A stretch of DNA of 64,000 nt from Spirochaetota bacterium (GTDB lineage: Bacteria; Spirochaetota; Spirochaetia; CAKZLE01): NCBI GenBank assembly GCA_051745285.1, contig JBNJDX010000001.1, forward strand, positions 67,150 to 131,149, in the 5' to 3' direction. The position numbers and the translations under genes are program-made. Positions 4,782-42,432 of the stretch are shown here, piece by piece; position 1 is the first letter of the stretch; every line of letters starts with the position of its first letter. A model generated the notes under the pieces. The model made no database searches and was not told the origin of the DNA. It was given only the letters and a program-made list of their open reading frames with translations.

Positions 4782-4843
4782 GAGCAAAGACCCCATTCTT
4801 TGCCTTACCAGGAACGATTTGGTGCACTCACACCGAGTCACCG

Positions 4844-4870: not shown

Positions 4871-5048
4871 CCCTGTAATGGGGGAGAATAATACTTTCAA
4901 ACAATTGGCGAGCCTTGAAAGGAAAAACAAGAATCGATATAGTTACCGTGAACGATTTTGCGCCCGCAGGTGTAGGCTGTATGCGTTTGAAAACGCGCAT
5001 CGCAGTTATCTTACACCGAGCGCTACTATATATCGTAAGGAGCGCACA

Positions 5049-5306: not shown

Positions 5307-5321
5307 ACAAAAGGAGCTTTC

Positions 5322-7172: not shown

Positions 7173-7183
7173 AGGAGAGTTGC

Positions 7184-11502: not shown

Positions 11503-11663
11503 AGTTTTTTTCTCTCTCTCCTGATTTTTTGGAATATCGTGATTGTACCATGGTTTTTTCGGCACTAATAGAAAAACCGTCAAACTCCTTTTTGCTACAT
11601 ACTATTTCTGATTGAGTTCCCCCTGGTTCTCGTATAAACTGAAGCGGTATAGGAGTATCATAG

Positions 11664-21406: not shown

Positions 21407-21435
21407 AGTAGTTACCTCAAACTCTTAACAGGTTT

Positions 21436-23354: not shown

Positions 23355-23576
23355 AATGCATCCCCCGGTGAAGGGGAGTATACCAGGATTACCAGTCCGG
23401 TTAAAGTACATCCGTCAGTAAGCCGAGCCCCCTGAGAAACATTGACACCGTGTATCCCATACCCTACCATAAGGATACCACAGTGAGTTTTGGTTGCGAG
23501 ACCCCGTGGTGCAAGAGTGCGTACCGGTCATTTCTCTAGCCGATAGCGCTCAATCGCGAAGAAGGAAAGGAACGTG

Positions 23577-27293: not shown

Positions 27294-28493
27294 ATGATAA
27301 GCTCCGGTAAAGCGCAGCTGCCGTTACACTACGGAAGAGTCCCCTCTTGGCTGTACGAACGAATGGAAAAAATCGGCACATCCATCACTGAACTGCTGCT
27401 TGAAGAACATGGCAGCAAAGGTTTCCTCTCAAGGATCAGCAATCCCTACTGGTTTCAGGCTCTTGGTTGCGTCATGGGAATGGATTGGCACTCATCAGGG
27501 ATTACAACCTCCGTTCTAGGAGCTCTCAAACGGGGAATAAATAAAAACAGTGCTACGTTCGGACTTCATATCTGCGGAGGAAGAGGTAAACAATCCAGGA
27601 ACACTCCAAATGAACTCGTCCGGATTTCTGGACAATTTGGCATTGAGTCAGAGGGACTGGTGCACGCTTCCCGTCTCAGCGCAAAAATCGACAATACCTG
27701 CATTAATGATGGCTACCAGCTCTACCTGCACACCTGCATAGTCGACCGCGACGGAAACTGGTCGGTAGTCCAGCAAGGGATGAATACAGCCGAGAAGATG
27801 GCCAGACGCTACCATTGGCACTCTAGTCAAGTCACATCATTTGTAGACAATCCTCACAGTGCAGTAGTAGGTCCGAATCGGGGTGTTATCATGAATATGG
27901 TCGACACAAGAGCGGCAGCCTCCAGGGATGCAGTCATCGATTTTATCAGTCAATCTCCCGGCAGGCAGCACAGGGAGTTGGCTGCCCTGGGACTCTGCAA
28001 CCCGCCCACTGGTCAACTGGACCTGTTCATGCCGGCAGAACATGAAGTAGGCAGTCAGGATGTGGATGCTGGCCGCCTGGGTGCAGTACTTGCTCTTGCC
28101 CATAGCAGGGGTGCCCGTGAATTTACCGATACGCTGTTAACCCCGGGGGTTGGACCGAGAACCGTTCAGGCGCTTGCACTGGTGAGTGAAGTGGTCTACG
28201 GGAAACCGAACCGCTTCTCTGATCCGGCTCGCTTCTCTTTTGCACACGGAGGCAAAGACGGTCATCCCTTTCCAGTCCCCATAAAAACGTACGATGAATC
28301 GATCAATACGCTCTCACGAGCAGTCAGAAAGGCAAAATTAGGTAACGACGGGGAAAAATCCGCTTTGAAACGACTTTCAGAGCTAGCAAAAGAACTTGAG
28401 GATAATTACGCACCGAGTGCTGATATTCAGCAGACAATCGCCCATGAACGACGCATCTCTTCCTCCCTCGGAGGAAAGACCTGTTTCAATTAG
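27294..28493 (+). CDS. DUF763-family protein of unknown function
   Basis: 399-aa soluble protein. I recognise the conserved blocks (WFQALGCVMGMDWHSSG, ICGGRGK) as DUF763-like. A helix-hairpin-helix-like segment, LLTPGVGPRTVQALALV, is also present. Confidence 0.6.
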   Translation: MISSGKAQLPLHYGRVPSWLYERMEKIGTSITELLLEEHGSKGFLSRISNPYWFQALGCVMGMDWHSSGITTSVLGALKRGINKNSATFGLHICGGRGKQSRNTPNELVRISGQFGIESEGLVHASRLSAKIDNTCINDGYQLYLHTCIVDRDGNWSVVQQGMNTAEKMARRYHWHSSQVTSFVDNPHSAVVGPNRGVIMNMVDTRAAASRDAVIDFISQSPGRQHRELAALGLCNPPTGQLDLFMPAEHEVGSQDVDAGRLGAVLALAHSRGAREFTDTLLTPGVGPRTVQALALVSEVVYGKPNRFSDPARFSFAHGGKDGHPFPVPIKTYDESINTLSRAVRKAKLGNDGEKSALKRLSELAKELEDNYAPSADIQQTIAHERRISSSLGGKTCFN

Positions 28494-28577: not shown

Positions 28578-28651
28578 GGGGGTGTAGCTCAGTTGGCTAG
28601 AGCGCGTGAATGGCATTCACGAGGTCAGGGGTTCAATTCCCCTCACCTCCA
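28578..28651 (+). tRNA. tRNA-Ala (anticodon GGC)
   Basis: I folded a 74-nt cloverleaf by hand. The acceptor stem is GGGGGTG/CACCTCC with the G3:U70 alanine identity pair. The D arm is GCTC/GAGC, the anticodon stem is CGTGA/TCACG with loop ATGGCAT, and the T arm is AGGGG-TTCAATT-CCCCT. No CCA is encoded. Confidence 0.9.
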
Positions 28652-28757
28652 AAATCACATCAATTCAGCATATCGCTTCTCAAACAAATACGGCCAGAGC
28701 CCGCACTCAGACGAACTCTGGTCTGCTTATCAATCGTGTGCATCTGCCACCTGTCTG

Positions 28758-30074
28758 TTAGGAGACAAGAGAAACCAGGGTCTTGACTGTCTCGTTGTAT
28801 GCTGCCACCTCTACTGCTAAAAGCATCTTCACAGGCGTATTCCCTGCGATTACTGCGGGGTAGATAGATTTTTTCCGCAGTGCTCCAACAACTTCTTCAA
28901 GCAACCGGGGTAACTCTGCAATTCCCTCTCCTACAATGCCAACTAATGCCAGCGGCTTAGACACATCACAGACATCGGCCTCCAATTCATTCACAATCTG
29001 TTCCTTGAGGCGCTGGGCGGTAGGCTCAGCCATCTCGGCAGCCAGGTAGAAAACCATCGCATCAAAGGCATCAACTACTACGTCAGCAGTAACGTTATGC
29101 TGCTGCAGAATGGACCTGAGTTTTCCGGGCACTTCCGGATAGCGATCCAGCATGAACTTTTCCATAACCAGTTTTCGATAGGGCTTCTTTCCGGAGACGC
29201 CTACGATCTGCTGCTTTGCAGCATCACGCTCGGGAGTAATCAGGGTTCCACTAGCCTGCGGATCATTGGTGTTTTTTATAGTGATGGGAACACCGGCCCT
29301 ACGAACCGGGGCAATAGCATCCTCATGAAATACATTGGCACCAATGGATGCCAGCTCTCTGATTTCCCGGTAGGTTATCTCAGCGACCGGCCCGGCCTCA
29401 TCTGCGATTCTCGGATCAGCCATATAGATACCGGACACATCGGTCCAGTTCTCATACATATCAGCGCCTACAGCTCTCGCAGCAATAGCACCTGTTATGT
29501 CTGACCCCCCGCGAGAAAACGTTTTTACAACCCCTTGCCGATTGGATCCAAAGAACCCTGGAATGACATACATGCGCTGTGGGTCACTCAGTTTTCCAGC
29601 AACCTGTTCGTAGGAGGAATCATCCACCCTCCCGTCATCAGTCAGTATGATTACATTCTCAGTATCAACAAACTCAGCACCCAGATATTCTGCAAACATG
29701 AGAGCATTCAGATACTCCCCTCGACTGGCTGCAAAATCAGGAGTCTTCTCCTTTGGCAGGCGGCTATAGACCGTATCAAGTTCCTGCTCAATTCGGCTGC
29801 CGACTCCCAGAGCTTCGGCGATATCTAAAAAGCGTTTTTTGATAATAGCGAAGGTGTCTTCATAATCCCCGCCCCGAGAGGCAAGCTCATGACATCGATA
29901 GAGAAGATCGGTAATTTTTGTGTCTTCTGGATGCTCCTTTCCCGGCGCCGAGACAATTACTACCTTTCTTCTTTCGTCAGAAAGGACAATATCACGCACC
30001 TTCATTATCTGCCGAGCATTGGCAAGCGAGGTTCCGCCGAATTTACACACCCAAAGTTCATTCTCTCTCTTCAT
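28758..30074 (-). CDS. Aspartate kinase
   Basis: WVCKFGGTSLA gives the kinase N-terminus, and ACT-type regulatory domains sit at the C-terminus. The ORF is trimmed to MKRENEL after an AGGAG RBS. Confidence 0.9.
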   Translation of the reverse strand: MKRENELWVCKFGGTSLANARQIMKVRDIVLSDERRKVVIVSAPGKEHPEDTKITDLLYRCHELASRGGDYEDTFAIIKKRFLDIAEALGVGSRIEQELDTVYSRLPKEKTPDFAASRGEYLNALMFAEYLGAEFVDTENVIILTDDGRVDDSSYEQVAGKLSDPQRMYVIPGFFGSNRQGVVKTFSRGGSDITGAIAARAVGADMYENWTDVSGIYMADPRIADEAGPVAEITYREIRELASIGANVFHEDAIAPVRRAGVPITIKNTNDPQASGTLITPERDAAKQQIVGVSGKKPYRKLVMEKFMLDRYPEVPGKLRSILQQHNVTADVVVDAFDAMVFYLAAEMAEPTAQRLKEQIVNELEADVCDVSKPLALVGIVGEGIAELPRLLEEVVGALRKKSIYPAVIAGNTPVKMLLAVEVAAYNETVKTLVSLVS

Positions 30075-30241
30075 TGACTTAACTCCTATCATCTAAACTT
30101 GTTTGCTCTGTTAAAACATTGCCACGATACCGTTGTGTAAAGCGCAAGGATATCCTACAGGCAACTGCTTTTTCAACACCTGTATCGTCCAGTTGTGTAT
30201 AAAAGCACTTGCATGCACTCGTTAAAAGCCCATTACCTGAT

Positions 30242-31243
30242 TCAAAGGGATATGTGTGTGCCGGTATTATTGGTTTGAGCTAACTCATACGCCTTCAGAG
30301 CAATCATTGTGTCCTGCACCCCCACCCCCGTTAAATCGCAAACGGTAATCTGCTTTTCATCTGCTCTGCCGGAGTGTTTTCCTCGAATAATGTCTCCCAG
30401 CTCCAAAACAGGAGTATGCTCAGTGACCACCTTGCTGCTTATCGCCGAACGGAGTTCTCCCAGACGGAGACTCTGTGTCCTCAGATCGCAGGCTATAACA
30501 TCAATGGCACTGAAAACTTCCGGCTTGAGCTCCTGTTTTTCTTCTGTATCACTACCCATAGCTGTAATATGCAGGCCTGGGTGCAGCCAGTCAGCCTGCA
30601 GAAAGCCTTCGCGTGATGGTGTGGCAGTGATGACCACCGAGCAATTGGCAACCACCTCGTTTCCGCTTTCTGCCTGAACAACCTCAACACCAAGTTTTTG
30701 AGCTATTCTCTGGGCAAATGCTTCTTTCTTCTCCCGTGTACTCGTACTGAACAGGTACACCTTATCGAATGCACGCACAAGAGCGAGAGCTTCCAACTGA
30801 TACTCAGCCTGGACTCCACTGCCAAATACTCCGACGCACTCAACGTTTTTTGGCGCCAGGTATTTTGCAGCAACCGCACCAGCCGCTGCGGTTCGAACCT
30901 GAGTCAGGTACCCGTTGTCGAGCAGAACAGCTTGAAGAAAACCGGTTTCCGCGCTTAACACCAGCATCTGTCCGCTCTGAGAGGGAAGGCCCAGGTTGCT
31001 ATTGTTAAAAAACCCCGAGGCAATTTTTACCGCTAGACTCGGCAGTCCCTGAATATAGGCACTCTTTATGTCTACCTCGCCCCGCTGATCCGGGACAGGA
31101 ATCATCATGATTGGGGGAACTGCGGCCTTCCCGTCAGCCAAGAAAGCAAATCCCTGTTCAACAGCTTCCACCACCCCAAGATCTAACTTCACAAGTTTTT
31201 GAAGTTCCCTTTCTGTTAAAACCAAAACATTATTCGGTTTCAT
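30242..31243 (-). CDS. Ornithine cyclodeaminase/mu-crystallin family enzyme (EutC-like)
   Basis: OCD-family fold with the Rossmann motif VGVFGSGVQA. The start overlaps the 3' end of the upstream PLP-dehydratase gene by 14 nt. Confidence 0.7.
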   Translation of the reverse strand: MKPNNVLVLTERELQKLVKLDLGVVEAVEQGFAFLADGKAAVPPIMMIPVPDQRGEVDIKSAYIQGLPSLAVKIASGFFNNSNLGLPSQSGQMLVLSAETGFLQAVLLDNGYLTQVRTAAAGAVAAKYLAPKNVECVGVFGSGVQAEYQLEALALVRAFDKVYLFSTSTREKKEAFAQRIAQKLGVEVVQAESGNEVVANCSVVITATPSREGFLQADWLHPGLHITAMGSDTEEKQELKPEVFSAIDVIACDLRTQSLRLGELRSAISSKVVTEHTPVLELGDIIRGKHSGRADEKQITVCDLTGVGVQDTMIALKAYELAQTNNTGTHISL

Positions 31244-32234
31244 ACTTCTCACGCTCCTTTTCGGCCATGAGGGTCAGATACGCCCGTACATCAACATTTC
31301 GTCCGGTGAGCGGAACGACAATACTCCGGCCCTCTGTTTTTACGGCTCCGCTGCGCATTGCTGCCAAGGTTACAACGGCTGCTCCCTCTGCAACCAGTCC
31401 CTCGTGGGAAAGGAGATAGTACATACTCTCAAGAATTTCAGGCTCATCGACAACTACATGTTCATCGACGTATCTGCTTACCATATCCATAGTAAAACGA
31501 TTTTTACTCCCGATTCCGCCGAGCAGGGAATCTGCGAGTGTGTCCTGCTCATCGATGGTAACAGGTCGCCCTGCGCGCAAACTATCCAGCATCACAGTTG
31601 AGCAACGCACGGAAACACCAATCACACGTACAGAGGGCTTCAGAGCCTTTATGGCTGAGGCCATTCCTGCAAGAAGCCCTCCGCCGGAAAGCGGTACCAG
31701 AATGGTGTCAACCTCGGGCGCCTGGTGAAATATCTCCCAGGCAATCGTACCCTGTCCGGCAATGATCATCGGATCATCAAAGGGAACCACTGGAAGAAAA
31801 CCTGCGTCTTTTCGTAACTGTTCGTAGTGTTCTTGAGCCTCATCCTGCGAGTGGCCGCAAACTGCCAGTTCTGCCCCCAGCCGCTTTACAGCCTCCATCC
31901 GATACGCAGCTACATGCCGGGAGAGGCAGACGACAGCTTGGACCCCAAGCTGTCGGGCAACATAGGCTACAGCCAAACCATGATTACCGGTTGAAAAAGT
32001 GATTACCCCCTTCTTCCTCTCTTCCGGTGTCAGTGACACTAAGAGGTTTGCTGCACCCCGCACTTTAAACGAGCCGGTCGGCTGCAGTGTTTCCAGTTTC
32101 AGAGAAACACTGCGAGCATGCACCTCTTCAGTCAGCCCAACAAGCCGGTGCAGGGGCGTCCGGGGCAGCAGCGGCGCAATACGCACAGCTGCTGCACGCA
32201 CATCCTCTAAAGACGGCAAATCAGACCGATCCAT
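31230..32234 (-). CDS. PLP-dependent threonine-dehydratase-like enzyme (EutB-like)
   Basis: The PLP-lysine motif SFKVRGA and the GNHG and GGGL loops are present. There is no C-terminal ACT regulatory domain. Confidence 0.7.
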   Translation of the reverse strand: MDRSDLPSLEDVRAAAVRIAPLLPRTPLHRLVGLTEEVHARSVSLKLETLQPTGSFKVRGAANLLVSLTPEERKKGVITFSTGNHGLAVAYVARQLGVQAVVCLSRHVAAYRMEAVKRLGAELAVCGHSQDEAQEHYEQLRKDAGFLPVVPFDDPMIIAGQGTIAWEIFHQAPEVDTILVPLSGGGLLAGMASAIKALKPSVRVIGVSVRCSTVMLDSLRAGRPVTIDEQDTLADSLLGGIGSKNRFTMDMVSRYVDEHVVVDEPEILESMYYLLSHEGLVAEGAAVVTLAAMRSGAVKTEGRSIVVPLTGRNVDVRAYLTLMAEKEREKYETE

Positions 32235-32239
32235 GTCCT

Positions 32240-33415
32240 TTACTTGTTGTAAATAATATCGATGGGATACTCATACAGGGGGGCATATCCATCTTCGGTT
32301 ACATAGATGGAGGCATCAATTTCGAACCCAACGTCATCATACCAGATTCCCGGGATGAGATGCAAAGCCATATTTGGCTGAAGCACAGTCTTATCACCCG
32401 GGCGGAGACTTATCGTCTGTTCACCCCAGTCCGGTGGATAGTTTACCCCGATGGAGTATCCGAGGCGAGACTCCTTGACTACCGTTGAGTGACTGATAGC
32501 CTCTCTCCACTTTGCTTCAACCTGTTCTGCGGTAATTCCCGGTTTAATGAAATCGAGCGTTGCCGCTAATCCGTCAGAAACGACCTTCGCTGTATCAGTC
32601 ATCAGTTCGGGAGGGTTGTCCCCGAGAAAAATCGTCCGAGCGATTGGAGCATGGTAATGTTTGTATACGCCTGAGAGCTCCAGCAGTACAGCCTCATCAG
32701 CTTGAAAGGGTTTATCCGACCAGGTAAGGTGCGGCGTTTTGGTAGCCTCCCCTGCCATCATAAGCGGAACAATTGCGGGATAATCCCCCCCGTACTCACT
32801 AGTCCCAGCATACTGAGCCTCCACAATTTTGGAAGCTGCATCACATTCCCTGACGCCGGGTCTGATATGCGTGGCTGCCGCTTCCATAACTTTGAGAGTA
32901 ATCTGTCCGGCTCGGCGCATCATCTCCAGTTCAGCTTCTGATTTTATTACCCGTACCCAGTTCACCAGGATATTTGCATTCACAAATTCAGCGTTAGGGA
33001 GACTCTTCTCCAGTACTACATACGAGTAATGGGTGAAGTAGAACTGATCAGACTCTACACCGATGCGTTTTTTATCCCAGCCCTTTTGTTTTATGATGTC
33101 AGCGACAAATTCCATTGGATGTTTGACTAGCGAATGCACATAGTCATCAGCATATTGATAGATATTCTCATCTGAAAGAAACGAGGTAATACGGGCTCCG
33201 TTGGCATCCATCCCTCTTCCTATCCAGACGGGTTCTTCAGCATCTAGGGAGACAAGCACGCACTGGTGCACATAAAAACTCCAGCCGTCGTATCCAGTCA
33301 AATAATTGAGATTTGCCGGATGGCTGACAAGCAACACATCTATATGCTTGGATTGCATCAGTTCTTTAGTCTTCTGTATCCGCTGTTGATATTCCTCTTT
33401 TGTAAATACTGGCAT
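32240..33415 (-). CDS. M24-fold creatinase/prolidase-like hydrolase (EutD/DoeA-like candidate ectoine hydrolase)
   Basis: 391 aa with a creatinase-type N-domain and a pita-bread C-domain. The block LTGYDGWSFYVHQC matches what I recall for ectoine hydrolases. The stop lies 5 nt from the EutB-like start. Confidence 0.6.
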   Translation of the reverse strand: MPVFTKEEYQQRIQKTKELMQSKHIDVLLVSHPANLNYLTGYDGWSFYVHQCVLVSLDAEEPVWIGRGMDANGARITSFLSDENIYQYADDYVHSLVKHPMEFVADIIKQKGWDKKRIGVESDQFYFTHYSYVVLEKSLPNAEFVNANILVNWVRVIKSEAELEMMRRAGQITLKVMEAAATHIRPGVRECDAASKIVEAQYAGTSEYGGDYPAIVPLMMAGEATKTPHLTWSDKPFQADEAVLLELSGVYKHYHAPIARTIFLGDNPPELMTDTAKVVSDGLAATLDFIKPGITAEQVEAKWREAISHSTVVKESRLGYSIGVNYPPDWGEQTISLRPGDKTVLQPNMALHLIPGIWYDDVGFEIDASIYVTEDGYAPLYEYPIDIIYNK

Positions 33416-33434
33416 TCATTCCTCCTTGGACAAC

Positions 33435-34175
33435 TCACATGTTGCCTGTGTATCGGTGCTTTACAACCGCATTGTACACATAATTAATCATCGTTATATA
33501 ATCAAATACTGGCAGGCCCGTTGCCTCCTGGACAGCAGCCCCGTAGGGAGGCAGCAAACTGCACTCAAGCAGCAGAGCCCCCGGCTCTCGCTCTCTTTGG
33601 ATATCTAAAGCGGTCTGAACGGTACAGGCCTCTATCGCCTCACTGTCTAGCTCCCCCCGTTCCTCTACAACCGCTTCAGTGAAGGCTCCGCAGCTCTCCA
33701 ATCCTCGGATAGCCAACCGCCTTTGGGTAGCCCGATCAACTCCGGCGCCATCAAGAACTGAAGCATCTAGTGCAAGGCTGTTAGCGGTTATAACACCGAT
33801 CGGGCGGTTCGGACTTATTATCTGGCCGATAAAGCCCAACTGCATGAGACTGGAGAGGAACACTGGAATTTTGAGTTCTTCTGCCAGTTTTTTCTGATAG
33901 ATAGCAAGAAATCCACAGTCGCCGGTTACAGCGCGAACCCCTTCTCGCTTCAGCTGCATTGCCGCTTCTTTCACCTGCGTATACATAGTTTCATCATGTT
34001 CAAACAGATGCTTTGCCGTCAAATCAGGTATGCGTTGGAAACGCACCGGAAACGTGTAAGTCGAGGCATTAGCGGTATCACCGGGGATAAACGGGACAAA
34101 GTTTTCAATCAACAGTATCCCGATTGCCTCCCCGTAACTAACCTGTCCAGCATTAGCTGCATATCTCATCAGCAC
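33435..34175 (-). CDS. Asp/Glu/hydantoin racemase-superfamily protein (EutA-like)
   Basis: 246 aa. Two Cys-containing pseudo-symmetric half-site motifs are present (TGDCGF and LLECSLLPPY), as in racemase/arylmalonate decarboxylase-type enzymes. Confidence 0.5.
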   Translation of the reverse strand: MLMRYAANAGQVSYGEAIGILLIENFVPFIPGDTANASTYTFPVRFQRIPDLTAKHLFEHDETMYTQVKEAAMQLKREGVRAVTGDCGFLAIYQKKLAEELKIPVFLSSLMQLGFIGQIISPNRPIGVITANSLALDASVLDGAGVDRATQRRLAIRGLESCGAFTEAVVEERGELDSEAIEACTVQTALDIQREREPGALLLECSLLPPYGAAVQEATGLPVFDYITMINYVYNAVVKHRYTGNM

Positions 34176-34203
34176 ATTCCTTTAAGCTTCACTGCCTTAT
34201 GCT

Positions 34204-35481
34204 TTATATACCTGCAATCGATGGTAAAAAGGTTGCAATCTGCGGAAACATAATTAACAGGATTGTTGAGAACACCAGAATCAGGACAAACGGCGGGGTC
34301 TTCCTGATAACTTCCAGATACGGGCGCCTGAAAATGAGTTGCGCAGTGAATATGTCACACCCGAATGGCGGTGTTGCAGAACCGATGGCAGCCTGGAGAA
34401 CAATCAGCGTACCAAGAAATACGGGATCGATACCGGTCATTACGACGTACGGTTGAAAAATCGGACTCAGCACGTATATTGCCACAATTGGGTCTACAAA
34501 CATGCAGGCAATGAAGTATGATATGACAACCACGATAATCAGCGATAATTGTGTGGGGTCAGTACCGATAATGTTGGGCATTATCTCCTGAGGCAGCCGC
34601 AAAAAGCTGATTACCCAGGAAAACACCTGTCCAGCTCCTACAAGGATAAATACCACTCCGGTAACAACACCTGCATCGAGAATTGCCTTTACCAGATTCT
34701 GGCGCGTCAATGTTTTGTAGATAAGTCCCTCTAGAACCAGCGCATAGGCCACACCAGCTGCTGCAGCTTCAGTAGGGCTGAAGATACCTGCGTAGATACC
34801 ACCGACAACAATGATCGGGAAACCCAGCACAAGATAGCCGTCTTTCAGGGCTTGCCACCGCTCTTTCGGCGTACTTTTCTGCATGATCGCAATCTTTTTG
34901 ATCTTTGAGTAGAAAAATACAAAGATCGAAAACAGGGTAAAGATCAAAATACCAGGTCCAATACCTGCTAAAAAGAGTTTTCCAATTGAGGTGCTTGTTA
35001 CAACTCCGTAGACAATAAAACCGATACTCGGCGGTATAAGCAGGGCGATATCACTGGCATTGATAATTAAACCAAGAGTAAATGAGCTTGAGTATCCGGC
35101 CTTCAACAGCATCGGCCGCATCGTTCCACCAATTGCTGATACGGTTGCCTGGGTCGAACCTGAGACAGCACCAAACAAGGTACAACTTGCATTCGTCGTA
35201 ATGGCAAGTCCTCCAGGGATATGACCGACATACACGCGGATCATTTCCACCAGTTTTGCGGCCGCCCTTCCGGAAGTCATGATGTTGGCTGCCAGAATAA
35301 ACATCGGCACACACACAAGCGCTGGAGCGCTAAACCCATTAATCACCTGTTGAATGACTACCTGCAAATCCATCAGCGGCATTTCTAAACCGAAGAACAT
35401 CAGCAGCGGTCCGAGTATCACAACCATAAAGGGGAACCCAAGCAGCAGCATCAGCACCATTGAAATCCACATAACGTTCAT
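34204..35481 (-). CDS. TRAP transporter large permease (DctM family)
   Basis: About 425-aa polytopic protein. The ATG lies 1 nt after the DctQ stop. Confidence 0.9.
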   Translation of the reverse strand: MNVMWISMVLMLLLGFPFMVVILGPLLMFFGLEMPLMDLQVVIQQVINGFSAPALVCVPMFILAANIMTSGRAAAKLVEMIRVYVGHIPGGLAITTNASCTLFGAVSGSTQATVSAIGGTMRPMLLKAGYSSSFTLGLIINASDIALLIPPSIGFIVYGVVTSTSIGKLFLAGIGPGILIFTLFSIFVFFYSKIKKIAIMQKSTPKERWQALKDGYLVLGFPIIVVGGIYAGIFSPTEAAAAGVAYALVLEGLIYKTLTRQNLVKAILDAGVVTGVVFILVGAGQVFSWVISFLRLPQEIMPNIIGTDPTQLSLIIVVVISYFIACMFVDPIVAIYVLSPIFQPYVVMTGIDPVFLGTLIVLQAAIGSATPPFGCDIFTAQLIFRRPYLEVIRKTPPFVLILVFSTILLIMFPQIATFLPSIAGI

Positions 35482-35482
35482 A

Positions 35483-36118
35483 CTACTTTTCCCCCTCTGT
35501 CTTGATTTCAACTCTCTCAAGCATCTTTATTGCATCAGCAGTCATGGTAGCCTCGTCCTCATACTCGCTCTGCTGTTCGGGAGAGAGCCACACATCCTTT
35601 TCGGCAATATTTTTGAAAAATGTCCTGATATACTGGAACCCGGCCATAAAAAATCCTACCGGAGCGACGATGAGAAAATACCAATACGGCATATTGAGAG
35701 ACGGTGTTCTCTGCCCGCTTATTTGCGTTGCCATCATATAGCGCCAGGAATGATATGCTAAGATCATGAGCACCACGGCACTGACGGCTGAAATAATCAT
35801 AACCATTATTTTCTCAAGTTTGGGTGGAAACGCCTCCAATATGGCCCCCATGCGAATATGTCTTGCTCTTCTCGCAGCATAGCTTGTGCCAATAAAAGTG
35901 ATAAGCATAACAAAGAAGGATGCTACTTCTTCTGAAAAATAGAGGCTGCGGTAGAATGTACGCGCTATAACGTTGGCAATCAGGAGTACAGCCAACATGG
36001 CAGTCGACCCGGTAATAATTCCTACTTCAATCCGGTCGACAGCTTTCGTAAATATGTCCCATGCACGTTGCAAGAATCCAACTATCCCGGGCTTGAAATC
36101 CTTCTTTTGTTCATTCAT
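35483..36118 (-). CDS. TRAP transporter small permease (DctQ family)
   Basis: 211 aa with four predicted TM helices, positioned between the SBP and DctM genes. Confidence 0.8.
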   Translation of the reverse strand: MNEQKKDFKPGIVGFLQRAWDIFTKAVDRIEVGIITGSTAMLAVLLIANVIARTFYRSLYFSEEVASFFVMLITFIGTSYAARRARHIRMGAILEAFPPKLEKIMVMIISAVSAVVLMILAYHSWRYMMATQISGQRTPSLNMPYWYFLIVAPVGFFMAGFQYIRTFFKNIAEKDVWLSPEQQSEYEDEATMTADAIKMLERVEIKTEGEK

Positions 36119-36139
36119 AGATTTTGCCTTTTCAAGTCA

Positions 36140-36166
36140 GGGTCCGGGAGATCTACCCCCGGACCC
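36140..36166 (-). other. Intercistronic stem-loop after the TRAP substrate-binding gene
   Basis: GGGTCCGGG / CCCGGACCC forms a perfect 9-bp GC-rich stem with a 9-nt loop, in the 65-bp gap between the dctP-like and dctQ-like genes. No U-tract follows it. The position fits an mRNA-stabilising or attenuating element that would raise SBP stoichiometry. Confidence 0.4.
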
Positions 36167-36183
36167 CGTCTATTTGTGCTTTA

Positions 36184-37263
36184 TTACATGCCTAGGGCAT
36201 CTTTTGCATTTTCGATGTCATTAAGGAGAGCTTCTAGCATCTTAGCTGCATCGTCTCCTCCGGTTTCAGGAAACCTCGGATACACTTCCTCTTCGGCTTT
36301 CTCTCGGAGCTCTGCAACCTGATCCTCGTTGAACTCTACAAACTTGATTTCAGGACGCTCTTCCTCGATTTTTGCACGATCACTCGAGTTTCTCTCATTA
36401 ATCCACTGAGCCGACTCTACTGAAACGTCTACCCAGTAGTCGCGCATGAGCTGCTGCTGTTCGTCAGAGAGTGATTCAAAGAACTGCATATTCACAGAGG
36501 GAATACCCAAAAAGGGCTCAGCCCAAAGTTGTGCAAAGTGGTCAGCCACTTCATAGAAGCCCATACTGTAGTTGGCGAACATCGGTTGAATCTGAGCATC
36601 AATTAGGCCGGTCTGGAGACCACTGTAAATCTCTCCATAAGCCAGCGTGGTCGGGTCCATATCATAAGCACGATAATCCATGCTCAACTGTTTTGAACCC
36701 ATGATTCTTGTTTTCAGTCCTTTCAGATCGTCCGGGCCATTGATAGGTTCTTTAGAAGTAATCCACTGCCAGCCTTCATACAGGATGCCCAGCGGGACAA
36801 GACCGTTTTGACGGAATTTTTCTTCTAGCATAGGCATGTAGTCGCCGTTACGTACAACCCACTCAAGAACTTCAGCGATGTTTTCACGCGGCCATACATA
36901 GTGCAGAGCCAGAGCGTTCGCCTGGGATACAAAAGCACTTATCCATGCGTAGTCAGAAAATACAAACTCAACAACACCAAGCTGTGCGAGTTCGTTGATA
37001 TCCCGGTTTCCCCCCAACGTTCCGTAGGGATATACGGTAATATCAATTCCGCCATCCGTTTCTTCCCGCATGTAGTCGGCAAAGTTGTTTGCCCAGACGG
37101 TCATAAAATCACCCTCAACCTCTTCGGAAACAAGCCGGGCTTCGATAACCTCACCGTCTGTTGACTCCTCCTCACCAGCGTCCTGCTGTCCTTGAGCGAA
37201 GAGTGCCGTAGTTGATACTAACAGTATTAGTACCAGAACTATTAGCTTCATAGTCTTTTTCAT
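36184..37263 (-). CDS. TRAP transporter substrate-binding protein (DctP family; TeaA/UehA-like candidate)
   Basis: A signal peptide (MKKTMKLIVLVLILLVSTTALFA) precedes a DctP-type periplasmic domain. Confidence 0.85.
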   Translation of the reverse strand: MKKTMKLIVLVLILLVSTTALFAQGQQDAGEEESTDGEVIEARLVSEEVEGDFMTVWANNFADYMREETDGGIDITVYPYGTLGGNRDINELAQLGVVEFVFSDYAWISAFVSQANALALHYVWPRENIAEVLEWVVRNGDYMPMLEEKFRQNGLVPLGILYEGWQWITSKEPINGPDDLKGLKTRIMGSKQLSMDYRAYDMDPTTLAYGEIYSGLQTGLIDAQIQPMFANYSMGFYEVADHFAQLWAEPFLGIPSVNMQFFESLSDEQQQLMRDYWVDVSVESAQWINERNSSDRAKIEEERPEIKFVEFNEDQVAELREKAEEEVYPRFPETGGDDAAKMLEALLNDIENAKDALGM

Positions 37264-37353
37264 AAACTCCTCCTATTAAAGTTATAAAAAATAATTGTCT
37301 CTTTATCGCGTTACCAAGATCGTATCGAATTCACCTCCTTACTTGTTGTGCGA

Positions 37354-38556
37354 TTACGCCTTTCGCTGAGAACCCGATGGATTTTCAGTAAAGTAACGCA
37401 TGGCGCCTCGAACGAGAAACTCCACTCCTGTGGGGAGTGTCTGTTCATCAATGGTAAATTGTGCGTTATGATGCGGGTAGGTGCTTGCTGTCTTCTCGTT
37501 TGCAGTTCCGATGAATGCAAACACTGCGGGAACAGCTTCCCCAAAGGCGGCAAAGTCCTCACATGCCATTGAGGCATGTTCTAGCACATTCTGCCTGCCT
37601 ACTACCTCTCCTGCGGCCTTGTGTGCAAGAGCTGTCATGGTGCTGTCGTTGACCACAGCATCATTTTCATGACTGATATCAAAGCTGCAGGTGCACCCAT
37701 ACAGGGTGCAGACATCCGTAACCAGCTGTGTAAACTTATTGGTGGGGTTATCATCATCTCCAGGCTTGGTTGCATACAGATACCGGATGGTCCCCTCCAG
37801 GACGACAGAATCCGGTATAATATTATTCTTACTTCCCCCGTTAATCTTACCGAACATCAATGCAATTGGCTTCATGGGGCTGACCAATCTGGTCTGGATT
37901 ACCTGAGCCTGCTGAATGACAGCTGCGGCGGCGATGACAGGATCAACCGCACTCTCAGGATATCCGGTGTGCCCGCCCCGTCCGCTGATAGTAACCTTAA
38001 ACACATCCATTGAAGCGGTCACTGCGCCGGATTTCACCCCAATGGTACCGCTTGGAAGTGGGGACCAGATATGAAGTCCCATAGCTGCACTGACTGCGGG
38101 ATTCTCAAGGACTCCGTCATCTATCATCACCTGAGCGCCGGCAACTTCCTCATTTGGCTGGAAAACAAACTTGATATACCCGTCAAACGAGTCTCGCATA
38201 CCGGTGAGCACTTTAGCAGCGATTAGCATCATCGCCATGTGGGCATCGTGCCCGCAGGCGTGCATCACTCCTTTGTGCTCAGATGCAAAGGGCAAACCGG
38301 TCTGCTCCTCGATTGGCAGCCCATCCATATCTGCACGCATGAGCAGCACCGGTCCGTTATCTGTGCGACCTTTCAGCACAGCAGTCACCCCCGTCTCTGA
38401 AACCCGCTTTGTAACGAGTCCCAGGTTCTGGAGGTACTGTTCTACCTTCTCTGCCGATCGGTACTCCTGAAACCCAAGTTCAGGAGATCTGTGGAAATCT
38501 CTCCGCAAAGCTATAAGTTCGTCGGTATACGCACCAACTGCTTTTTGGAAATCCAT
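37354..38556 (-). CDS. M20/M40-family amidohydrolase (N-acyl-amino-acid deacylase type)
   Basis: 400 aa with M20D features (MHACGHDAH and the dimerisation-lid region). The start lies 3 nt after the asd stop. Confidence 0.85.
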   Translation of the reverse strand: MDFQKAVGAYTDELIALRRDFHRSPELGFQEYRSAEKVEQYLQNLGLVTKRVSETGVTAVLKGRTDNGPVLLMRADMDGLPIEEQTGLPFASEHKGVMHACGHDAHMAMMLIAAKVLTGMRDSFDGYIKFVFQPNEEVAGAQVMIDDGVLENPAVSAAMGLHIWSPLPSGTIGVKSGAVTASMDVFKVTISGRGGHTGYPESAVDPVIAAAAVIQQAQVIQTRLVSPMKPIALMFGKINGGSKNNIIPDSVVLEGTIRYLYATKPGDDDNPTNKFTQLVTDVCTLYGCTCSFDISHENDAVVNDSTMTALAHKAAGEVVGRQNVLEHASMACEDFAAFGEAVPAVFAFIGTANEKTASTYPHHNAQFTIDEQTLPTGVEFLVRGAMRYFTENPSGSQRKA

Positions 38557-38559
38557 TGG

Positions 38560-39576
38560 CTACACCAAATCCCTCTTTATGAGCGTCTCGGCAATCTGAA
38601 CAGCGTTCAGAGCGGCCCCTTTTCGAATATTATTGGAAACAACCCACAGGTTGAGACCATTGTCTATCGTGGTATCTTCCCGCATTCTTCCGACCATCGT
38701 AAGGTCTTCATCATTGCTCATGATCGGTGTTGGATAGGTTTCAGTGGCGGGATCATCAATGATCTTAATGCTCTCTTCCCCGCCGAGGATATCCCGGACC
38801 TGTTCAACAGTCAGTTTTTTCTCTGTTTCAATGTTGATCGATTCAGAGTGCCCATACCAGACGGGAACCCTGACACAGGTGGCTGTCACTTTGATATTCG
38901 GATCCAGCATCTTTTTGGTCTCGTTGACCATCTTGTACTCTTCCTTAGTGTAGCCACCTTCCTGAAATACATCGATATGGGGCAGGCAGTTAAAAGCAAT
39001 CTGCTGCTTGTAGGCCTTGGGCTCACTGACACCACCACTTTGTAGCTGCTCCTCGGATTCTTCCCGCAGTCCATCGATAGCCTTTTTCCCCGAACCGGAC
39101 ACCGCCTGGTAGGTTGAAACTACCACGCGTTTGATGTTCGCTGCTGCATGCAGCGGTTTGAGTACCACCAGCATCTGAATGGTCGAACAGTTCGGATTGG
39201 CGATGATTCCTTTGTGCCAGTCCAAATCCTCCGGATTTACCTCGGGCACCACCAACGGGCAATTGGGATCCATCCTCCATTGAGCGCTATTATCTACAAC
39301 AACAGCTCCCTCTTCGACTGCAATCGGGGCAAGCACTTTACTTGCTTCTCCGCCTGCAGAAAAGATGGCAATATCTACGCCCTGAAAAGCACCTTTCTTA
39401 GCCTCTTTGGTTACCCATTTCTTTCCCTGGAACTCTACCTCTTTTCCAGCCTGGGAGGCCACATCAAGCGGTACAAGCTCAGAAACAGGAAATTTTCTTC
39501 TCTCCAATGTTGCCAGCATCTCCGTTCCAACCACTCCGAGTGCACCGACAACTGCAACAGTATATGTTTTCGCCAT
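38560..39576 (-). CDS. asd: Aspartate-semialdehyde dehydrogenase (phosphorylating, bacterial short type)
   Basis: VAVVGALGVVG, the active-site sequence IANPNCSTIQ and STYQAVSGSG are present. The ORF is trimmed to MAKTYTV after an AAGGAGG RBS. Confidence 0.9.
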   Translation of the reverse strand: MAKTYTVAVVGALGVVGTEMLATLERRKFPVSELVPLDVASQAGKEVEFQGKKWVTKEAKKGAFQGVDIAIFSAGGEASKVLAPIAVEEGAVVVDNSAQWRMDPNCPLVVPEVNPEDLDWHKGIIANPNCSTIQMLVVLKPLHAAANIKRVVVSTYQAVSGSGKKAIDGLREESEEQLQSGGVSEPKAYKQQIAFNCLPHIDVFQEGGYTKEEYKMVNETKKMLDPNIKVTATCVRVPVWYGHSESINIETEKKLTVEQVRDILGGEESIKIIDDPATETYPTPIMSNDEDLTMVGRMREDTTIDNGLNLWVVSNNIRKGAALNAVQIAETLIKRDLV

Positions 39577-39596
39577 AACCCTATCCTCCTTAGACA

Positions 39597-40979
39597 CTAA
39601 CTGAGCTTTCCGCTCTCAAGATCAGCAATAACACCCTCAATAATCTCAATCCCTTTCATCAGAAGTTCTTCAGAAATAACCAAGGGCGGAAGCAGTCTTG
39701 CTACATTGTTGTGGTGACCACCGACTTCTATCATAACGCCCCGCTGGTGGGCATACTTTCTAATCTTTTTAGCAATATCCGCAGAGGGCTTTTTGCTCTT
39801 GGAATCCTCTACCATCTCGAGGGCAAGCATCAATCCAATTCCGCGGGCTTCACCGAGAGTGTCATGTTTTTTCTCCATCTCTTTGAGACGGGCCATTGCC
39901 TTTTCACCAAGTTCAGCTGCTCTTTGCGGAATCTTATGTTCTACCATCCAGTTTAGACCCGTGGCACCAGCTGCAAATGCAACCATATTTCCGCGGAATG
40001 TGCCGATTGTCTTACCAGCCGGCCAGGTATTGAGCTCCTCCCGGTAAGCAATAGCTGAAATGGGAAATCCAACTCCACCGAGAGCTTTACTCATCGTTAC
40101 AATGTCGGGAACGATTCCAGCATGCTCGAAGGCAAACATCTTCCCTGTTCGGCCGAGTCCTGACTGAATCTCATCACAAATCATCAACACCCCATGTCTT
40201 TCAGTTATCTCGCGTACTCTTTGCAGGAACCTAGGTGAAGGGATAATAGTTCCGCCCTCACCCTGCACTGACTCAAGAATAACAGCAGCTGGTTTTGAAA
40301 AACCGGAGTGGGAATCCTCCAGGATCCGCTCCAGGGTGTTTGCAGCCTGATCGTTCACCTGGTCGTCCGGACAGCCGAACGGGTTGCGGTAAGTGTAGGG
40401 AAACGGAATAAACTGGATTCCAGGGACAAGGGTCCCAATTCCATCCCGGTGACTGCTATCGGAAGTCAGTGCCAACGCAGCTCCTGTCATCCCGTGATAC
40501 GCCCCTTCAAAGGCAAGGATCCCATTACGGCCGGTGTTGTACTTTGCCAGTTTCAAAGCCTGTTCAACAGCATCCGAACCAGTCGGTCCGCCAAAGAACA
40601 CCCGGTTGAGTTCTTTCGGCAACAGGGTGGCAAGGGTCTCCACCATCTTCTGCCGTGTTTCAGTAGGGATATCAAGTGAATGAGTAACCTTGTCAATCTG
40701 CTCATGTGCTGCTCTGAGTACTTCCGGGTGCCCATGACCAAGCGCCATAACGCCAGCTCCCGCAAACAGATCTATATAGACATTACCGTCAACGTCCTCC
40801 AGAGTAGCTCCTTTTCCTCTTGCCAGGGCCATCGGCATCCCCTTGGAATAGGAAACTGCAGAACTCTCATGTTCTGCCTGATAGGTTAAAATTTCTTTTG
40901 ATTTCGGTCCGGGTGGTACCATATGTATTTTCGGCGCCCCCTCAATCGACATCTGTTCAAACATCTTCTCATTGTCCAT
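39597..40979 (-). CDS. Class-III PLP aminotransferase (diaminobutyrate/4-aminobutyrate transaminase type; DoeD/EctB-like)
   Basis: Family blocks GSDAVE, DEIQSGLGRTG and the PLP-lysine region TMSKALGG are present. The ORF is trimmed to MDNEKMF after an AAGGAG RBS. Confidence 0.85.
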   Translation of the reverse strand: MDNEKMFEQMSIEGAPKIHMVPPGPKSKEILTYQAEHESSAVSYSKGMPMALARGKGATLEDVDGNVYIDLFAGAGVMALGHGHPEVLRAAHEQIDKVTHSLDIPTETRQKMVETLATLLPKELNRVFFGGPTGSDAVEQALKLAKYNTGRNGILAFEGAYHGMTGAALALTSDSSHRDGIGTLVPGIQFIPFPYTYRNPFGCPDDQVNDQAANTLERILEDSHSGFSKPAAVILESVQGEGGTIIPSPRFLQRVREITERHGVLMICDEIQSGLGRTGKMFAFEHAGIVPDIVTMSKALGGVGFPISAIAYREELNTWPAGKTIGTFRGNMVAFAAGATGLNWMVEHKIPQRAAELGEKAMARLKEMEKKHDTLGEARGIGLMLALEMVEDSKSKKPSADIAKKIRKYAHQRGVMIEVGGHHNNVARLLPPLVISEELLMKGIEIIEGVIADLESGKLS

Positions 40980-41007
40980 TTCTACTTCTCCTTTGCGCTT
41001 CTCCGCC

Positions 41008-41814
41008 CTACAAGGCAGATCCGCTCGCATTATGTACCATTTTTTCAGTTATCTGCTTTGCCGCATCTTTCAACGGCTCAATCAGTTCATTAATTTTCTC
41101 TTCAGTCAGTCGCATCGCTGGCCCGGATATTGAAACAGTGGCCATGACCTCTTCTCTCTCGTTATAAATCGGGGCGGCAACACTGTTGAGATCGTCGGCA
41201 AATTCAAGTATTTCCGTAGCATACCCATCTCTGAGAGCCTTCTGTACTGCCTGCTTAAACGCCTGGGGATCGGTAATGCTGTGATCGGTCCGCCGTCTAT
41301 AATTCAGATTCCTCAGGTAGGAATCCAGTTTCTCCTGGGGCCAGCAAGAAAGGAGTAATTTGCCAGAAGCACAGGTATTTACCGGATAGGTGTAGGTTAC
41401 ATCCGGATTGAGCACTACGTGGTGCGAACTCTTTACCTCTTCAATGGCTATCACTACATCATCCGAAAGCACCGTCAAATAGATATTCTCACGAGCAACT
41501 TTTTCAAGATCATACATCTTGGATTTGGCCAAATCTCGAAGCTTCTTTTTAACTGGGACAGTACTCCCAAGCTGAAACAGCTTAAAACTCAGCTGATATC
41601 CATCATCTGTTTTCTCCACATACCCTATGTGCACGAGCGTCGCTAACAGTCGGTGCACATTGGCCCGGGTCAGACCAAGCCCTTTGCAAATAGTAGAAGG
41701 CTGTACCGGTTGGTTGGCAGCAATAAACTCAAGTAGGGAACTTGCTTTTATCACAGTAGTCGCCAATGGGTAGCTTGTATCACTATTTGAACAACTGTTT
41801 ATTTGTTGAGACAT
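41008..41814 (-). CDS. IclR-family transcriptional regulator
   Basis: An N-terminal wHTH (ICKGLGLTRANVHRLLATLV) precedes a C-terminal IclR effector domain. It is the first gene of the minus-strand island. Confidence 0.85.
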   Translation of the reverse strand: MSQQINSCSNSDTSYPLATTVIKASSLLEFIAANQPVQPSTICKGLGLTRANVHRLLATLVHIGYVEKTDDGYQLSFKLFQLGSTVPVKKKLRDLAKSKMYDLEKVARENIYLTVLSDDVVIAIEEVKSSHHVVLNPDVTYTYPVNTCASGKLLLSCWPQEKLDSYLRNLNYRRRTDHSITDPQAFKQAVQKALRDGYATEILEFADDLNSVAAPIYNEREEVMATVSISGPAMRLTEEKINELIEPLKDAAKQITEKMVHNASGSAL

Positions 41815-42153
41815 ACCTTATTATGAGGCGGGCTTTTTTCATTTGTCAAGAGAAGATTTTCATAATTTCTGATTTTATTGCTCAGCTTTCTGCGGGAAAC
41901 AGCAAAAAAATGGGTATAGGGAGGGGAAGACCGCGTTATTACACAGCTGAAATTACTCTTTCGGCATTGTCGGTCTTCTCTAACGACCAGCTCTGTTTTT
42001 ACCGCGAGTTTGGCCCCGGTAAACGAGATGGTTAACCATATAGGCAGGCAGTTTGCTTAGAGGGGTATCACGCGTGAGGGATGGTGTCTTGCCTCAATGC
42101 ACCTGCAGTAGATCTCAGCATTCATCCCATTATGCTAGAAGAGGGGTCTGCTC

Positions 42154-42432
42154 TTATTTTTTGTGCTTTCGTCTGAAAATTGGATGGAAATACTTATCCA
42201 TGTCTACGTGCCGGGAGATGTATTTGATCAGTAGTGTATACAGACCATAGGTCCCTACAATTGAAACAACAAAGGAGAGCAGCATAAACAGTTGAACGGC
42301 TGCCGGCGAGGTATCTTCAGTCAGGAATATCCCCAGTACAGCCAGTACCAGGATAAAGAGCACTATCATCATCACGACGTTTAGTACTGAAGCCACAAGC
42401 ACGAATAGTGCAGTATTTACCTTCTTATTCAT
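42154..42432 (-). CDS. Small hypothetical membrane protein (2 TM helices)
   Basis: 92 aa with two hydrophobic helices and a basic tail. The start overlaps the lspA stop (ATGA). Confidence 0.5.
   Translation of the reverse strand: MNKKVNTALFVLVASVLNVVMMIVLFILVLAVLGIFLTEDTSPAAVQLFMLLSFVVSIVGTYGLYTLLIKYISRHVDMDKYFHPIFRRKHKK

Follow-up and report, generated by a model that had tools for sequence, protein, structure and literature searches.

The gene row and its boundaries

The DNA examined here is a 64,000-nucleotide stretch from a Spirochaetota bacterium (called the window below), and the subject of this report is a row of minus-strand genes within it that resembles the known operons for ectoine and hydroxyectoine degradation. 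The row occupies positions 28758-41814 as an unbroken series of open reading frames (ORFs), eleven of which lead from an IclR-family regulator to an ornithine cyclodeaminase (OCD)-like enzyme and are followed by an aspartate kinase, making twelve genes. In the reading favoured here, to which a probability of roughly 0.6 is given, these genes would serve an ectoine-type catabolism that ends in aspartate and in which a phosphorylating aspartate-semialdehyde dehydrogenase (Asd) replaces the aldehyde dehydrogenase of the described pathways.

The features of the row are listed in the direction of transcription, with the promoter-like site first and the terminator-like hairpin last.

41820-41849, minus strand: promoter-like site TTGACA-18 nt-CATAAT, directly upstream of the IclR start codon
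41008-41814, minus strand: IclR-family regulator (Pfam HTH_IclR and IclR_C), the presumed pathway regulator
39597-41030, likely start 40979, minus strand: class-III aminotransferase, diaminobutyrate type (TIGR00709)
38560-39597, likely start 39576, minus strand: phosphorylating Asd, bacterial asd_B type (PRK14874, TIGR01296)
37354-38556, minus strand: M20 amidohydrolase (TIGR01891)
36184-37263, minus strand: substrate-binding protein DctP of a tripartite ATP-independent periplasmic (TRAP) transporter, TeaA/UehA type by its best Protein Data Bank (PDB) matches
35483-36118, minus strand: TRAP small membrane subunit DctQ (Pfam DctQ)
34204-35520, likely start 35481, minus strand: TRAP large membrane subunit DctM (TIGR00786 passed; Pfam DctM)
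33435-34175, likely start 34169, minus strand: Asp/Glu-racemase-fold protein, PRK07475 family (NF005679)
32240-33415, minus strand: M24 hydrolase with creatinase-type N domain, EutD/DoeA-like (top match TIGR02993)
31230-32234, minus strand: pyridoxal phosphate (PLP)-dependent dehydratase of fold type II, EutB-like (top match NF005680)
30242-31252, likely start 31243, minus strand: OCD/mu-crystallin family enzyme, EutC-like (NF006141)
28758-30092, NCBI start 30074, minus strand: aspartate kinase, last gene of the unit (TIGR00657)
28694-28721, minus strand: terminator-like hairpin with an 11-bp stem, six G-C pairs and a T-rich tail, 37 nucleotides (nt) past the kinase stop codon

Gene content and order were read directly from the sequence, families were assigned by model searches, and start codons were picked by the length of homologues. 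The protein lengths that result are, in residues, 460 (aminotransferase), 338 (Asd), 425 (DctM), 244 (racemase-like protein), 333 (OCD-like enzyme) and 438 (kinase). Successive genes are then separated by 28, 20, 3, 90, 65, 1, 34, 19, 5, -14 and 167 nt; the overlap of 14 nt lies between the genes for the PLP dehydratase-like and OCD-like enzymes, and the kinase is preceded by 149 nt when counted from its first ATG or 167 nt when counted from the ATG of an identical NCBI protein (P0241). An initial annotation of this DNA, made from the letters and their ORF translations, had reported the same order and strand, counted twelve genes plus the kinase (there are eleven plus the kinase) and described the packing as tight, with one 14-nt overlap and a 149-nt gap before the kinase, a description that is borne out except for the longer gaps of 90 and 65 nt that flank dctP. 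The families that it named for each ORF were returned again by the Pfam and NCBIfam searches, in which the IclR protein reached no NCBIfam equivalog.

The promoter-like site is a candidate and the best match in its region, with 11 of 12 positions agreeing with the consensus; because the totals of promoter-like and terminator-like sites are no higher than in shuffled sequence, both this site and the hairpin are consensus matches only. Among riboswitches and other known RNAs, the sole match above threshold is a tRNA.

Proposed substrate uptake and ring opening

The best PDB matches of DctP are proteins that bind ectoine or hydroxyectoine (3gyy and 2vpn at 137 bits, 3fxb at 128 bits), followed by an unrelated binding protein at 82 bits. 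Eight positions, which we take to be the ligand contacts of TeaA (E9, F66, R144, W167, N184, F187, W188 and F209; checked only by the residue types that match the chain at those positions), read EWRYQFAF in the window, compared with EFRWNFWF (TeaA) and EFRWNFFF in two solved binders. Four of the eight are identical (E, R, F and F), three are conservative exchanges (F to W, W to Y and N to Q), and one tryptophan is lost to alanine. Across about 30 M24-linked loci, the signature of the binding protein is E-W-R-Y-N/Q-F-A-F, as against T-F-R-F-N-T-T-D in an unrelated SiaP-like protein.

For the M24 hydrolase, the solved DoeA structures 6twk and 6twj score 365 bits and the next M24 structures, which are prolidases, only 91 bits. 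The protein is 44% identical to DoeA of Sinorhizobium meliloti, which is encoded in the annotated pSymB ehu-eut cluster, and it retains 99 of the 108 alignment columns (92%) that are invariant in eight canonical EutD sequences chosen for their linkage to EutE or EnuR, whereas distant M24 paralogues retain 41-46%. In a neighbour-joining tree, the EutE-linked M24 clade is nested among M20-linked clades. These results suggest an EutD/DoeA-like enzyme, and we infer that it is an ectoine ring hydrolase.

Putative deacetylase, racemase-fold, PLP and OCD proteins

The M20 protein passes the amidohydrolase model TIGR01891 (326.7 bits, cut-off 153.75), and its best PDB match is YxeP. The N-acyl-amino-acid amidohydrolase family of TIGR01891 also holds NCBI's model for DoeB2 (NF038260), so an M20 deacetylase for the N-acetyl-diaminobutyrate step has a precedent in the databases. 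DoeB of S. meliloti has no tblastn match in the window, and the M20 protein has no similarity to S. meliloti EutE. The exchange of EutE/DoeB for an M20 enzyme, described in the initial annotation, is thus confirmed, and the protein is a putative N-alpha-acetyl-diaminobutyrate deacetylase.

The racemase-like protein passes NF005679 (257.9 bits, cut-off 231) and has no match in Pfam. Its AlphaFold (AF2) model has a predicted local distance difference test (pLDDT) score of 91.7, and Foldseek aligns this model with arylmalonate decarboxylase and with aspartate, allantoin and hydantoin racemases (probability 1.00, template modelling scores of 0.55-0.61). The protein has two cysteines, C87 and C205, that do not vary among 32 homologues. 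The two-domain fold with one cysteine in each half, which marks the Asp/Glu racemase superfamily that includes EutA, is thus present, and the model points to a two-base racemase or an epimerase-type enzyme of that superfamily. The protein had been set beside EutA, an assignment that is rejected here: it has no match to TIGR02990 and no BLASTP match, an hhalign comparison gives a probability of 6%, and the two share no more than the fold class. EutA of S. meliloti itself scores 458 bits on TIGR02990. The genomic linkage differs as well, because the gene accompanies the M24/M20 core, even in loci that have no EutB- and EutC-like genes, and is not tied to the EutB/EutC-like pair.

Among the families searched, EutB is the top one for the PLP enzyme (NF005680, 379.5 bits; TIGR02991, 338.3 bits), with the next family at 282 bits, and the protein is 44% identical to EutB of S. 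meliloti. The OCD-like enzyme passes the model NF006141, named 'cyclodeaminase' (435 bits, cut-off 408), and is 45% identical to EutC of S. meliloti; it is presumably an imine reductase or a cyclodeaminase. The M24, PLP and OCD proteins are filed here as EutD-, EutB- and EutC-like, and not as demonstrated members of these families.

Aminotransferase, Asd and aspartate kinase

The three best NCBIfam matches of the class-III aminotransferase are diaminobutyrate transaminase models, and the 'dat' subfamily TIGR00709 is passed (418.8 bits, cut-off 401.6); the protein stays below the cut-offs of the narrower models PRK06938, PRK06931 and EctB. The gene next to it encodes a protein that passes two Asd equivalogs (PRK14874, 470 bits against 223; TIGR01296, 438 against 324), and no aldehyde dehydrogenase was found in the window, in agreement with the initial annotation, which had a phosphorylating Asd in the place of Ssd/DoeC. 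A second asd gene, of the archaeal/EA type (TIGR00978, 338.7 bits against 301.2), lies 11 kb away at 26096-27115 on the minus strand, beside a DUF763 gene (27294-28493) and a tRNA-Ala(GGC) gene (28578-28651), and is 25% identical to the cluster Asd. In the related metagenome contig L092, the pair of asd and DUF763 genes likewise follows the cluster, and there are two asd copies there too. Judged from these sequences, the genome clearly carries the cluster Asd as an additional copy.

The kinase passes TIGR00657 (233 bits, cut-off 208.7) and just misses the equivalog PRK09034 (408.6 bits, cut-off 434); its best PDB match is an aspartokinase (3tvi, 318 bits).

Conservation across genomes

The order IclR, aminotransferase, Asd, M20, DctPQM, racemase-like, M24, PLP enzyme, OCD-like enzyme, in some cases a second M24, and aspartate kinase is shared by Sediminispirochaeta smaragdinae (DSM 11293; CP002116, 585,936-607,108) and by Pleomorphochaeta sp., both with the second M24, and by several Spirochaetota metagenome-assembled genomes (MAGs). 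At least ten other genomes have it, most of them from Spirochaetota, so the arrangement is not due to chance. In relatives, too, the IclR gene heads the cluster, with 49-67% identity within the Spirochaetota. The M24 protein has thousands of relatives; the closest named relatives of the window are Pleomorphochaeta sp. and MAGs of the Sphaerochaetaceae.

A scan of species-representative genomes yielded 78 further loci, which were typed by tblastn with the window proteins and with reference proteins; because many contigs are truncated, the counts of accompanying genes are lower bounds. Within the 80 loci that have no EutE homologue, an M20 gene of the window type occurs in 48 and a second M20 type in 18 (together 66 of 80), the TRAP permease in 47, the EutB-like gene in 46, the racemase-like gene in 38, the EutC-like gene in 30, IclR in 29 and a second M24 in 23. 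The minimal recurring module, seen in Desulfobacterota, consists of IclR, M24, the racemase-like protein, M20 and DctPQM.

The downstream module varies with the lineage. In Spirochaetota and in one 'Deltaproteobacteria' MAG, the module is aminotransferase plus Asd, and the two genes are adjacent in all ten Asd-bearing loci as well as in the window (11/11). In Bacillales, it comprises a cystathionine-gamma-synthase-like enzyme, a homoserine dehydrogenase and an aldehyde dehydrogenase. Asd and aldehyde dehydrogenase exclude each other, with zero overlap between the 10 loci that carry the former and the 17 that carry the latter. Aspartate-semialdehyde-using enzymes thus adjoin EutD-like genes in three forms, namely Asd in Spirochaetota, homoserine dehydrogenase together with aldehyde dehydrogenase in Bacillales, and aldehyde dehydrogenase in proteobacterial loci; that three different enzymes using this compound stand there across lineages argues for aspartate semialdehyde as an intermediate.

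The Bacillales variant (L010, L034, L039, L044, L046, L047 and others, among them a Priestia megaterium plasmid) belongs to aerobic Gram-positive bacteria and contains PucR, EutB, M24, cyclodeaminase, cystathionine-gamma-synthase-like, M20, homoserine dehydrogenase and aldehyde dehydrogenase genes, often with two or three copies of M24; the two aspartate-semialdehyde-using enzymes stand where Asd would. In Clostridia, Halanaerobiales and many Desulfobacterota, the downstream genes are a divergent glutamate dehydrogenase (GDH)-like gene and RidA. This GDH-like gene (421.8 bits, against a cut-off of 750), often with RidA, lies beside M24 where aminotransferase and Asd are missing, as in L005, L020, L022, L030, L054, L069, L070, L071 and L086, and in Haloferax M24 adjoins gdhB. 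Such clusters suggest a different downstream route.

In relatives, a second EutD-like M24 gene is placed between the OCD-like gene and the kinase (L003, 13178-14368; L007, 13185-14354; L092, 6890-8059). Its product shares 49% identity with that of the first copy and reaches 448.5 bits on TIGR02993. The interval 30075-30241 of the window holds no remnant of it, with only chance matches by tblastn and by low-stringency blastn against L092; the window has lost the second M24 gene. The two paralogues may divide ectoine and hydroxyectoine between them.

In these relatives, only 10-28 nt lie between the second M24 and the kinase, so that the kinase, which the initial annotation placed behind a 149-bp gap, is more than a neighbour of the cluster; the intervening gene is the one lost in the window. 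The kinase ends the cluster in six Asd loci (L003, L007, L012, L015, L016 and L018) and in L092, and a linked kinase is found in 7 of the 10 Asd loci as well as in the window, across two phyla. In L090 (Desulfuromusa kysingii) and L091 ('Deltaproteobacteria bacterium tcs-42'), the kinase, with 48-49% identity, is part of an extended cluster behind different intervening genes. Several genes separate it there from M24, including those for a 1000-residue protein of the NAD-GDH type, a proline-racemase-family protein and a flavin adenine dinucleotide (FAD) flavoprotein with an Fe-S/CCG subunit, and neither locus has EutB- or EutC-like genes.

The locus had also been called an island. In the sense of recent transfer this is rejected in view of the flat guanine-cytosine (GC) content of the window (0.47-0.50) and of the synteny of both the cluster and its flanks with L092, at 65-70% nucleotide identity.

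Proposed pathway and competing explanations

In the proposed pathway, a TRAP transporter of the TeaA/UehA type would import ectoine and probably 5-hydroxyectoine as well. The EutD-like M24 enzyme would open the tetrahydropyrimidine ring to give N-alpha-acetyl-diaminobutyrate, from which the M20 enzyme, in place of EutE/DoeB, would remove the acetyl group, with the racemase-fold protein acting somewhere in this M24/M20 core. The class-III aminotransferase would then convert L-2,4-diaminobutyrate and 2-oxoglutarate into aspartate semialdehyde and glutamate. Where aerobes employ an aldehyde dehydrogenase, Asd would turn aspartate semialdehyde, phosphate and NADP+ into beta-aspartyl phosphate, and the aspartate kinase, working in reverse, would pass the phosphate to ADP, releasing aspartate and one ATP by substrate-level phosphorylation. 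On the hydroxylated branch, the EutB-like and EutC-like enzymes would take 3-hydroxy-diaminobutyrate through an imine to diaminobutyrate, by analogy with BhcB and BhcD; it is this branch that the pair probably processes. The IclR protein would control the unit as a substrate-inducible operon, whose products would be acetate and aspartate.

The substrate, the direction of Asd and of the kinase, and each single reaction are predicted from homology and gene context, and the parts of the pathway differ in strength. An ectoine-type catabolism through diaminobutyrate and aspartate semialdehyde is likely, and an oxidative role of Asd within it is slightly favoured. A gain of ATP through the linked kinase comes a little short of even odds. 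The Asd reaction is reversible and the equilibrium of aspartate kinase favours aspartate and ATP; to our knowledge, the pair has been described only as working in the biosynthetic direction. The host is presumably anaerobic, given the taxonomy of its relatives, with which the oxaloacetate decarboxylase and FeoAB genes in the window are consistent. An Asd in fermenting spirochaetes and an aldehyde dehydrogenase in aerobic lineages is the pattern expected if ATP conservation matters. The most far-reaching form of the proposal, in which anaerobic spirochaetes ferment ectoine by an undescribed substrate-level phosphorylation that uses a dedicated second Asd and a reversed aspartate kinase, is tentative and somewhat more doubtful than an even bet.

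Several observations weigh against these assignments, and many of them would fit an operon for a related solute, such as another cyclic amidine or an N-acylated diamino acid, with the likeness to Eut and Doe proteins reflecting ancestry only. No curated equivalog of EutD, EutB, EutC, EutA, DoeB or DoeB2 is reached. The initial annotation had placed the M24, PLP and OCD proteins with their Eut counterparts, and all three fall short of NCBI's curated cut-offs: 466 bits against 613 for M24 on TIGR02993, its top NCBIfam match, 379.5 against 413 for the PLP enzyme, and 372.7 against 471.65 for the OCD-like enzyme on the EutC model TIGR02992. The second M24 copy and a Priestia homologue (530.9 bits) also stay under 613. 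In a neighbour-joining tree of high-scoring segment pair translations with midpoint rooting, indicative only like the other tree used here, the window M24 lies in an M20-linked clade beside the EutE-linked clade and not within it. The M20 protein aligns with the DoeB2 model end to end at 262 bits, below the cut-off of 550, and scores higher on CpsA (356 bits); the PDB matches of the aminotransferase (GABA-AT, EctB and racemases), all at 258-282 bits, do not discriminate. In the binding pocket, the change of W188 to alanine is not conservative and N184 is a glutamine in this lineage. The pathway as drawn is incomplete, because the racemase-fold protein, although unexplained, is part of the core and has no step in it, and many kin clusters have the GDH-like gene and RidA instead of an aminotransferase. 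A related solute is nevertheless a distinctly unlikely substrate, since M24 keeps 92% of the EutD-invariant residues, the binding protein retains the glutamate, the arginine and the aromatic box of ectoine binders, and the diaminobutyrate-type aminotransferase, Asd, homoserine dehydrogenase and aldehyde dehydrogenase point to diaminobutyrate derived from ectoine and to aspartate semialdehyde. As a label for the operon, ectoine/hydroxyectoine degradation, which the initial annotation had proposed, thus remains the best reading through the relatives of its M24, TRAP, PLP and OCD proteins, with the missed Eut cut-offs and the absence of EutA counting against it.

It is also conceivable, if rather unlikely, that ectoines are degraded while the kinase gene, and perhaps asd too, belongs to ordinary biosynthesis and stands there by chance; aspartate semialdehyde would then feed the synthesis of lysine, threonine and methionine, or be oxidised without conserving ATP. 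It may simply be the regular aspartate kinase of the cell: kinases with 46-47% identity occur in unrelated contexts (n=3), among which the cluster-linked kinases are scattered in a neighbour-joining tree, where they are polyphyletic and a distinct catabolic clade of aspartate kinases was not found. Three Asd-bearing loci have no linked kinase, and the 167-nt gap before the window kinase holds a weak promoter-like site. Against coincidence speak the 10-28 nt that separate the kinase from the preceding cluster gene in relatives and its linkage to EutD-like clusters of Spirochaetota and likewise of Desulfuromonadales-type genomes, although the genes in between differ. Any kinase that is active would, besides, bring aspartyl phosphate into equilibrium with ATP. 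For Asd, the extra copy and its one-for-one replacement of aldehyde dehydrogenase argue against a biosynthetic role. That the whole cluster is anabolic, with kinase, Asd and aminotransferase making diaminobutyrate from aspartate for ectoine or siderophore synthesis, is very improbable. These three enzymes are exactly those of the first steps of ectoine biosynthesis, and some ect clusters include a dedicated aspartokinase (review PMC5924519), but no EctA, EctC or decarboxylase was found in the window, the three genes stand amid those of an importer and two hydrolases, and catabolic aldehyde dehydrogenases fill the same position in other lineages.

Comparison with known systems

Where ectoine catabolism has been studied by experiment, the organisms are aerobic proteobacteria (PMC8739950; PMC7192451). 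The gene clusters of Ruegeria pomeroyi (uehABC-usp-eutABCDE-asnC-ssd-atf, with enuR) and S. meliloti (ehuABCD-eutABCDE) share with the window a high-affinity importer with a binding protein (of the TRAP type in Ruegeria), an M24 hydrolase (44%), EutB-like (44%) and EutC-like (45%) enzymes, a diaminobutyrate transaminase and, as predicted for the window, aspartate as the end product (PMC8739950). The window differs from them in having IclR in place of the MocR-type EnuR and AsnC, M20 in place of EutE, a PRK07475 racemase-fold protein in place of EutA, Asd and aspartate kinase in place of Ssd, and a presumably anaerobic host. The exchange of the regulator, claimed in the initial annotation for MocR/EnuR or AsnC, is borne out by the Pfam assignment to IclR, and the S. 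meliloti regulator has no homologue in the window.

Halomonas elongata (doeABX-doeCD and TeaABC) has the same succession of hydrolase, deacetylase, transaminase and semialdehyde oxidation, and the solved TeaA and DoeA proteins are the best relatives of known structure for the window DctP and M24, respectively. Unlike in Halomonas, no DoeB or DoeC homologue is found in the window, and the transporter lies inside the operon, whereas that of Halomonas is osmoregulated and unlinked to the doe genes.

Boas Lichty et al. (2026; PMC13188858) reported putative clusters of Thermodesulfobacteriota with two eutD homologues and neither eutE nor ssd, together with further variants from Bacillota, Actinomycetota and Halobacteria. 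These clusters have 9-13 co-directional genes, usually two eutD genes and a TRAP transporter, and the locus survey around the M24 family recovers the lineages in which they occur; the window, unlike them, has no second eutD copy. Spirochaetota, IclR, Asd and aspartate kinase are not mentioned in that study, in which the additional genes are unexplained, and beyond it the literature search returned nothing relevant on anaerobic ectoine degradation, a catabolic pair of Asd and kinase, or DoeB2. The earlier view of the variant as uncharacterised is therefore too broad in so far as these clusters and the DoeB2 model NF038260 exist, and it stands for the features that the study does not mention. 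The finding is partly anticipated at the level of the gene list; the mechanism of ATP formation by Asd and kinase is a new idea.

Two further systems offer analogies to single steps. Glyceraldehyde-3-phosphate dehydrogenase (GAPDH) and phosphoglycerate kinase convert an aldehyde and phosphate into an acyl phosphate that phosphorylates ADP, which resembles the predicted Asd and kinase pair in function only, as the substrates differ. In structure and mechanism, Asd is related to GAPDH, and the window protein has a weak NCBIfam match to GAPDH-I. The enzymes BhcB and BhcD of the beta-hydroxyaspartate cycle combine a fold-II PLP dehydratase with an imine reductase of the OCD family, and their models match the window proteins at 208 and 190 bits; EutB and EutC models score far higher (379 and 373-435 bits), and the presumed substrate is a hydroxylated diaminobutyrate and not hydroxyaspartate. 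The exact roles of EutB and EutC are unclear even in the model organism (PMC8739950).

Other genes in the window

On the plus strand at 23574-26091, a transporter gene of the BCCT family (betaine/carnitine/choline type) precedes a tandem universal-stress-protein gene; L092 has MatE at this place. The BCCT protein is a second compatible-solute transporter near the ectoine-type operon, and universal-stress-protein genes accompany the ectoine TRAP systems of Ruegeria and Halomonas.

The plus-strand genes at 4800-8344 encode a Na+-translocating oxaloacetate decarboxylase that is complete, with its gamma, alpha and beta subunits; this enzyme is typical of anaerobic energy metabolism. A phosphoenolpyruvate (PEP) carboxykinase of the GTP type is encoded at 14690-16618 on the minus strand. 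Either enzyme could be an outlet for the aspartate that the operon would make, once this is transaminated to oxaloacetate. At 10075-14425, a xanthine/uracil permease adjoins the large subunit and the [2Fe-2S] subunit of a molybdopterin hydroxylase, an arrangement that resembles a catabolic module of the purine type and has no relation to the operon. A trio of radical S-adenosylmethionine (SAM), AMMECR1 and Memo-like genes at 19807-22332 on the minus strand keeps its synteny in L092. In the interval between lspA and the IclR promoter region, a candidate short hydrophobic ORF at about 42150-42431 on the minus strand was noted by eye and is unconfirmed.

Biological significance

Ectoines are among the most abundant organic osmolytes of saline habitats. 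The operon, along with related ones in Clostridia, Halanaerobiales and Desulfobacterota, would show how this pool can be recycled without oxygen. For metabolic engineering, the M20 deacetylase, the racemase-fold partner and the IclR switch would offer alternatives to the known parts, and the strong linkage between the racemase-fold protein and the hydrolases would give a new handle on the unsolved roles of EutA, EutB and EutC. If the proposed energy-conserving route is true, it would add a new entry to the short list of substrate-level phosphorylations, aspartate kinase would become a catabolic, energy-conserving enzyme, and ectoine would be an energy substrate in anoxic saline sediments.

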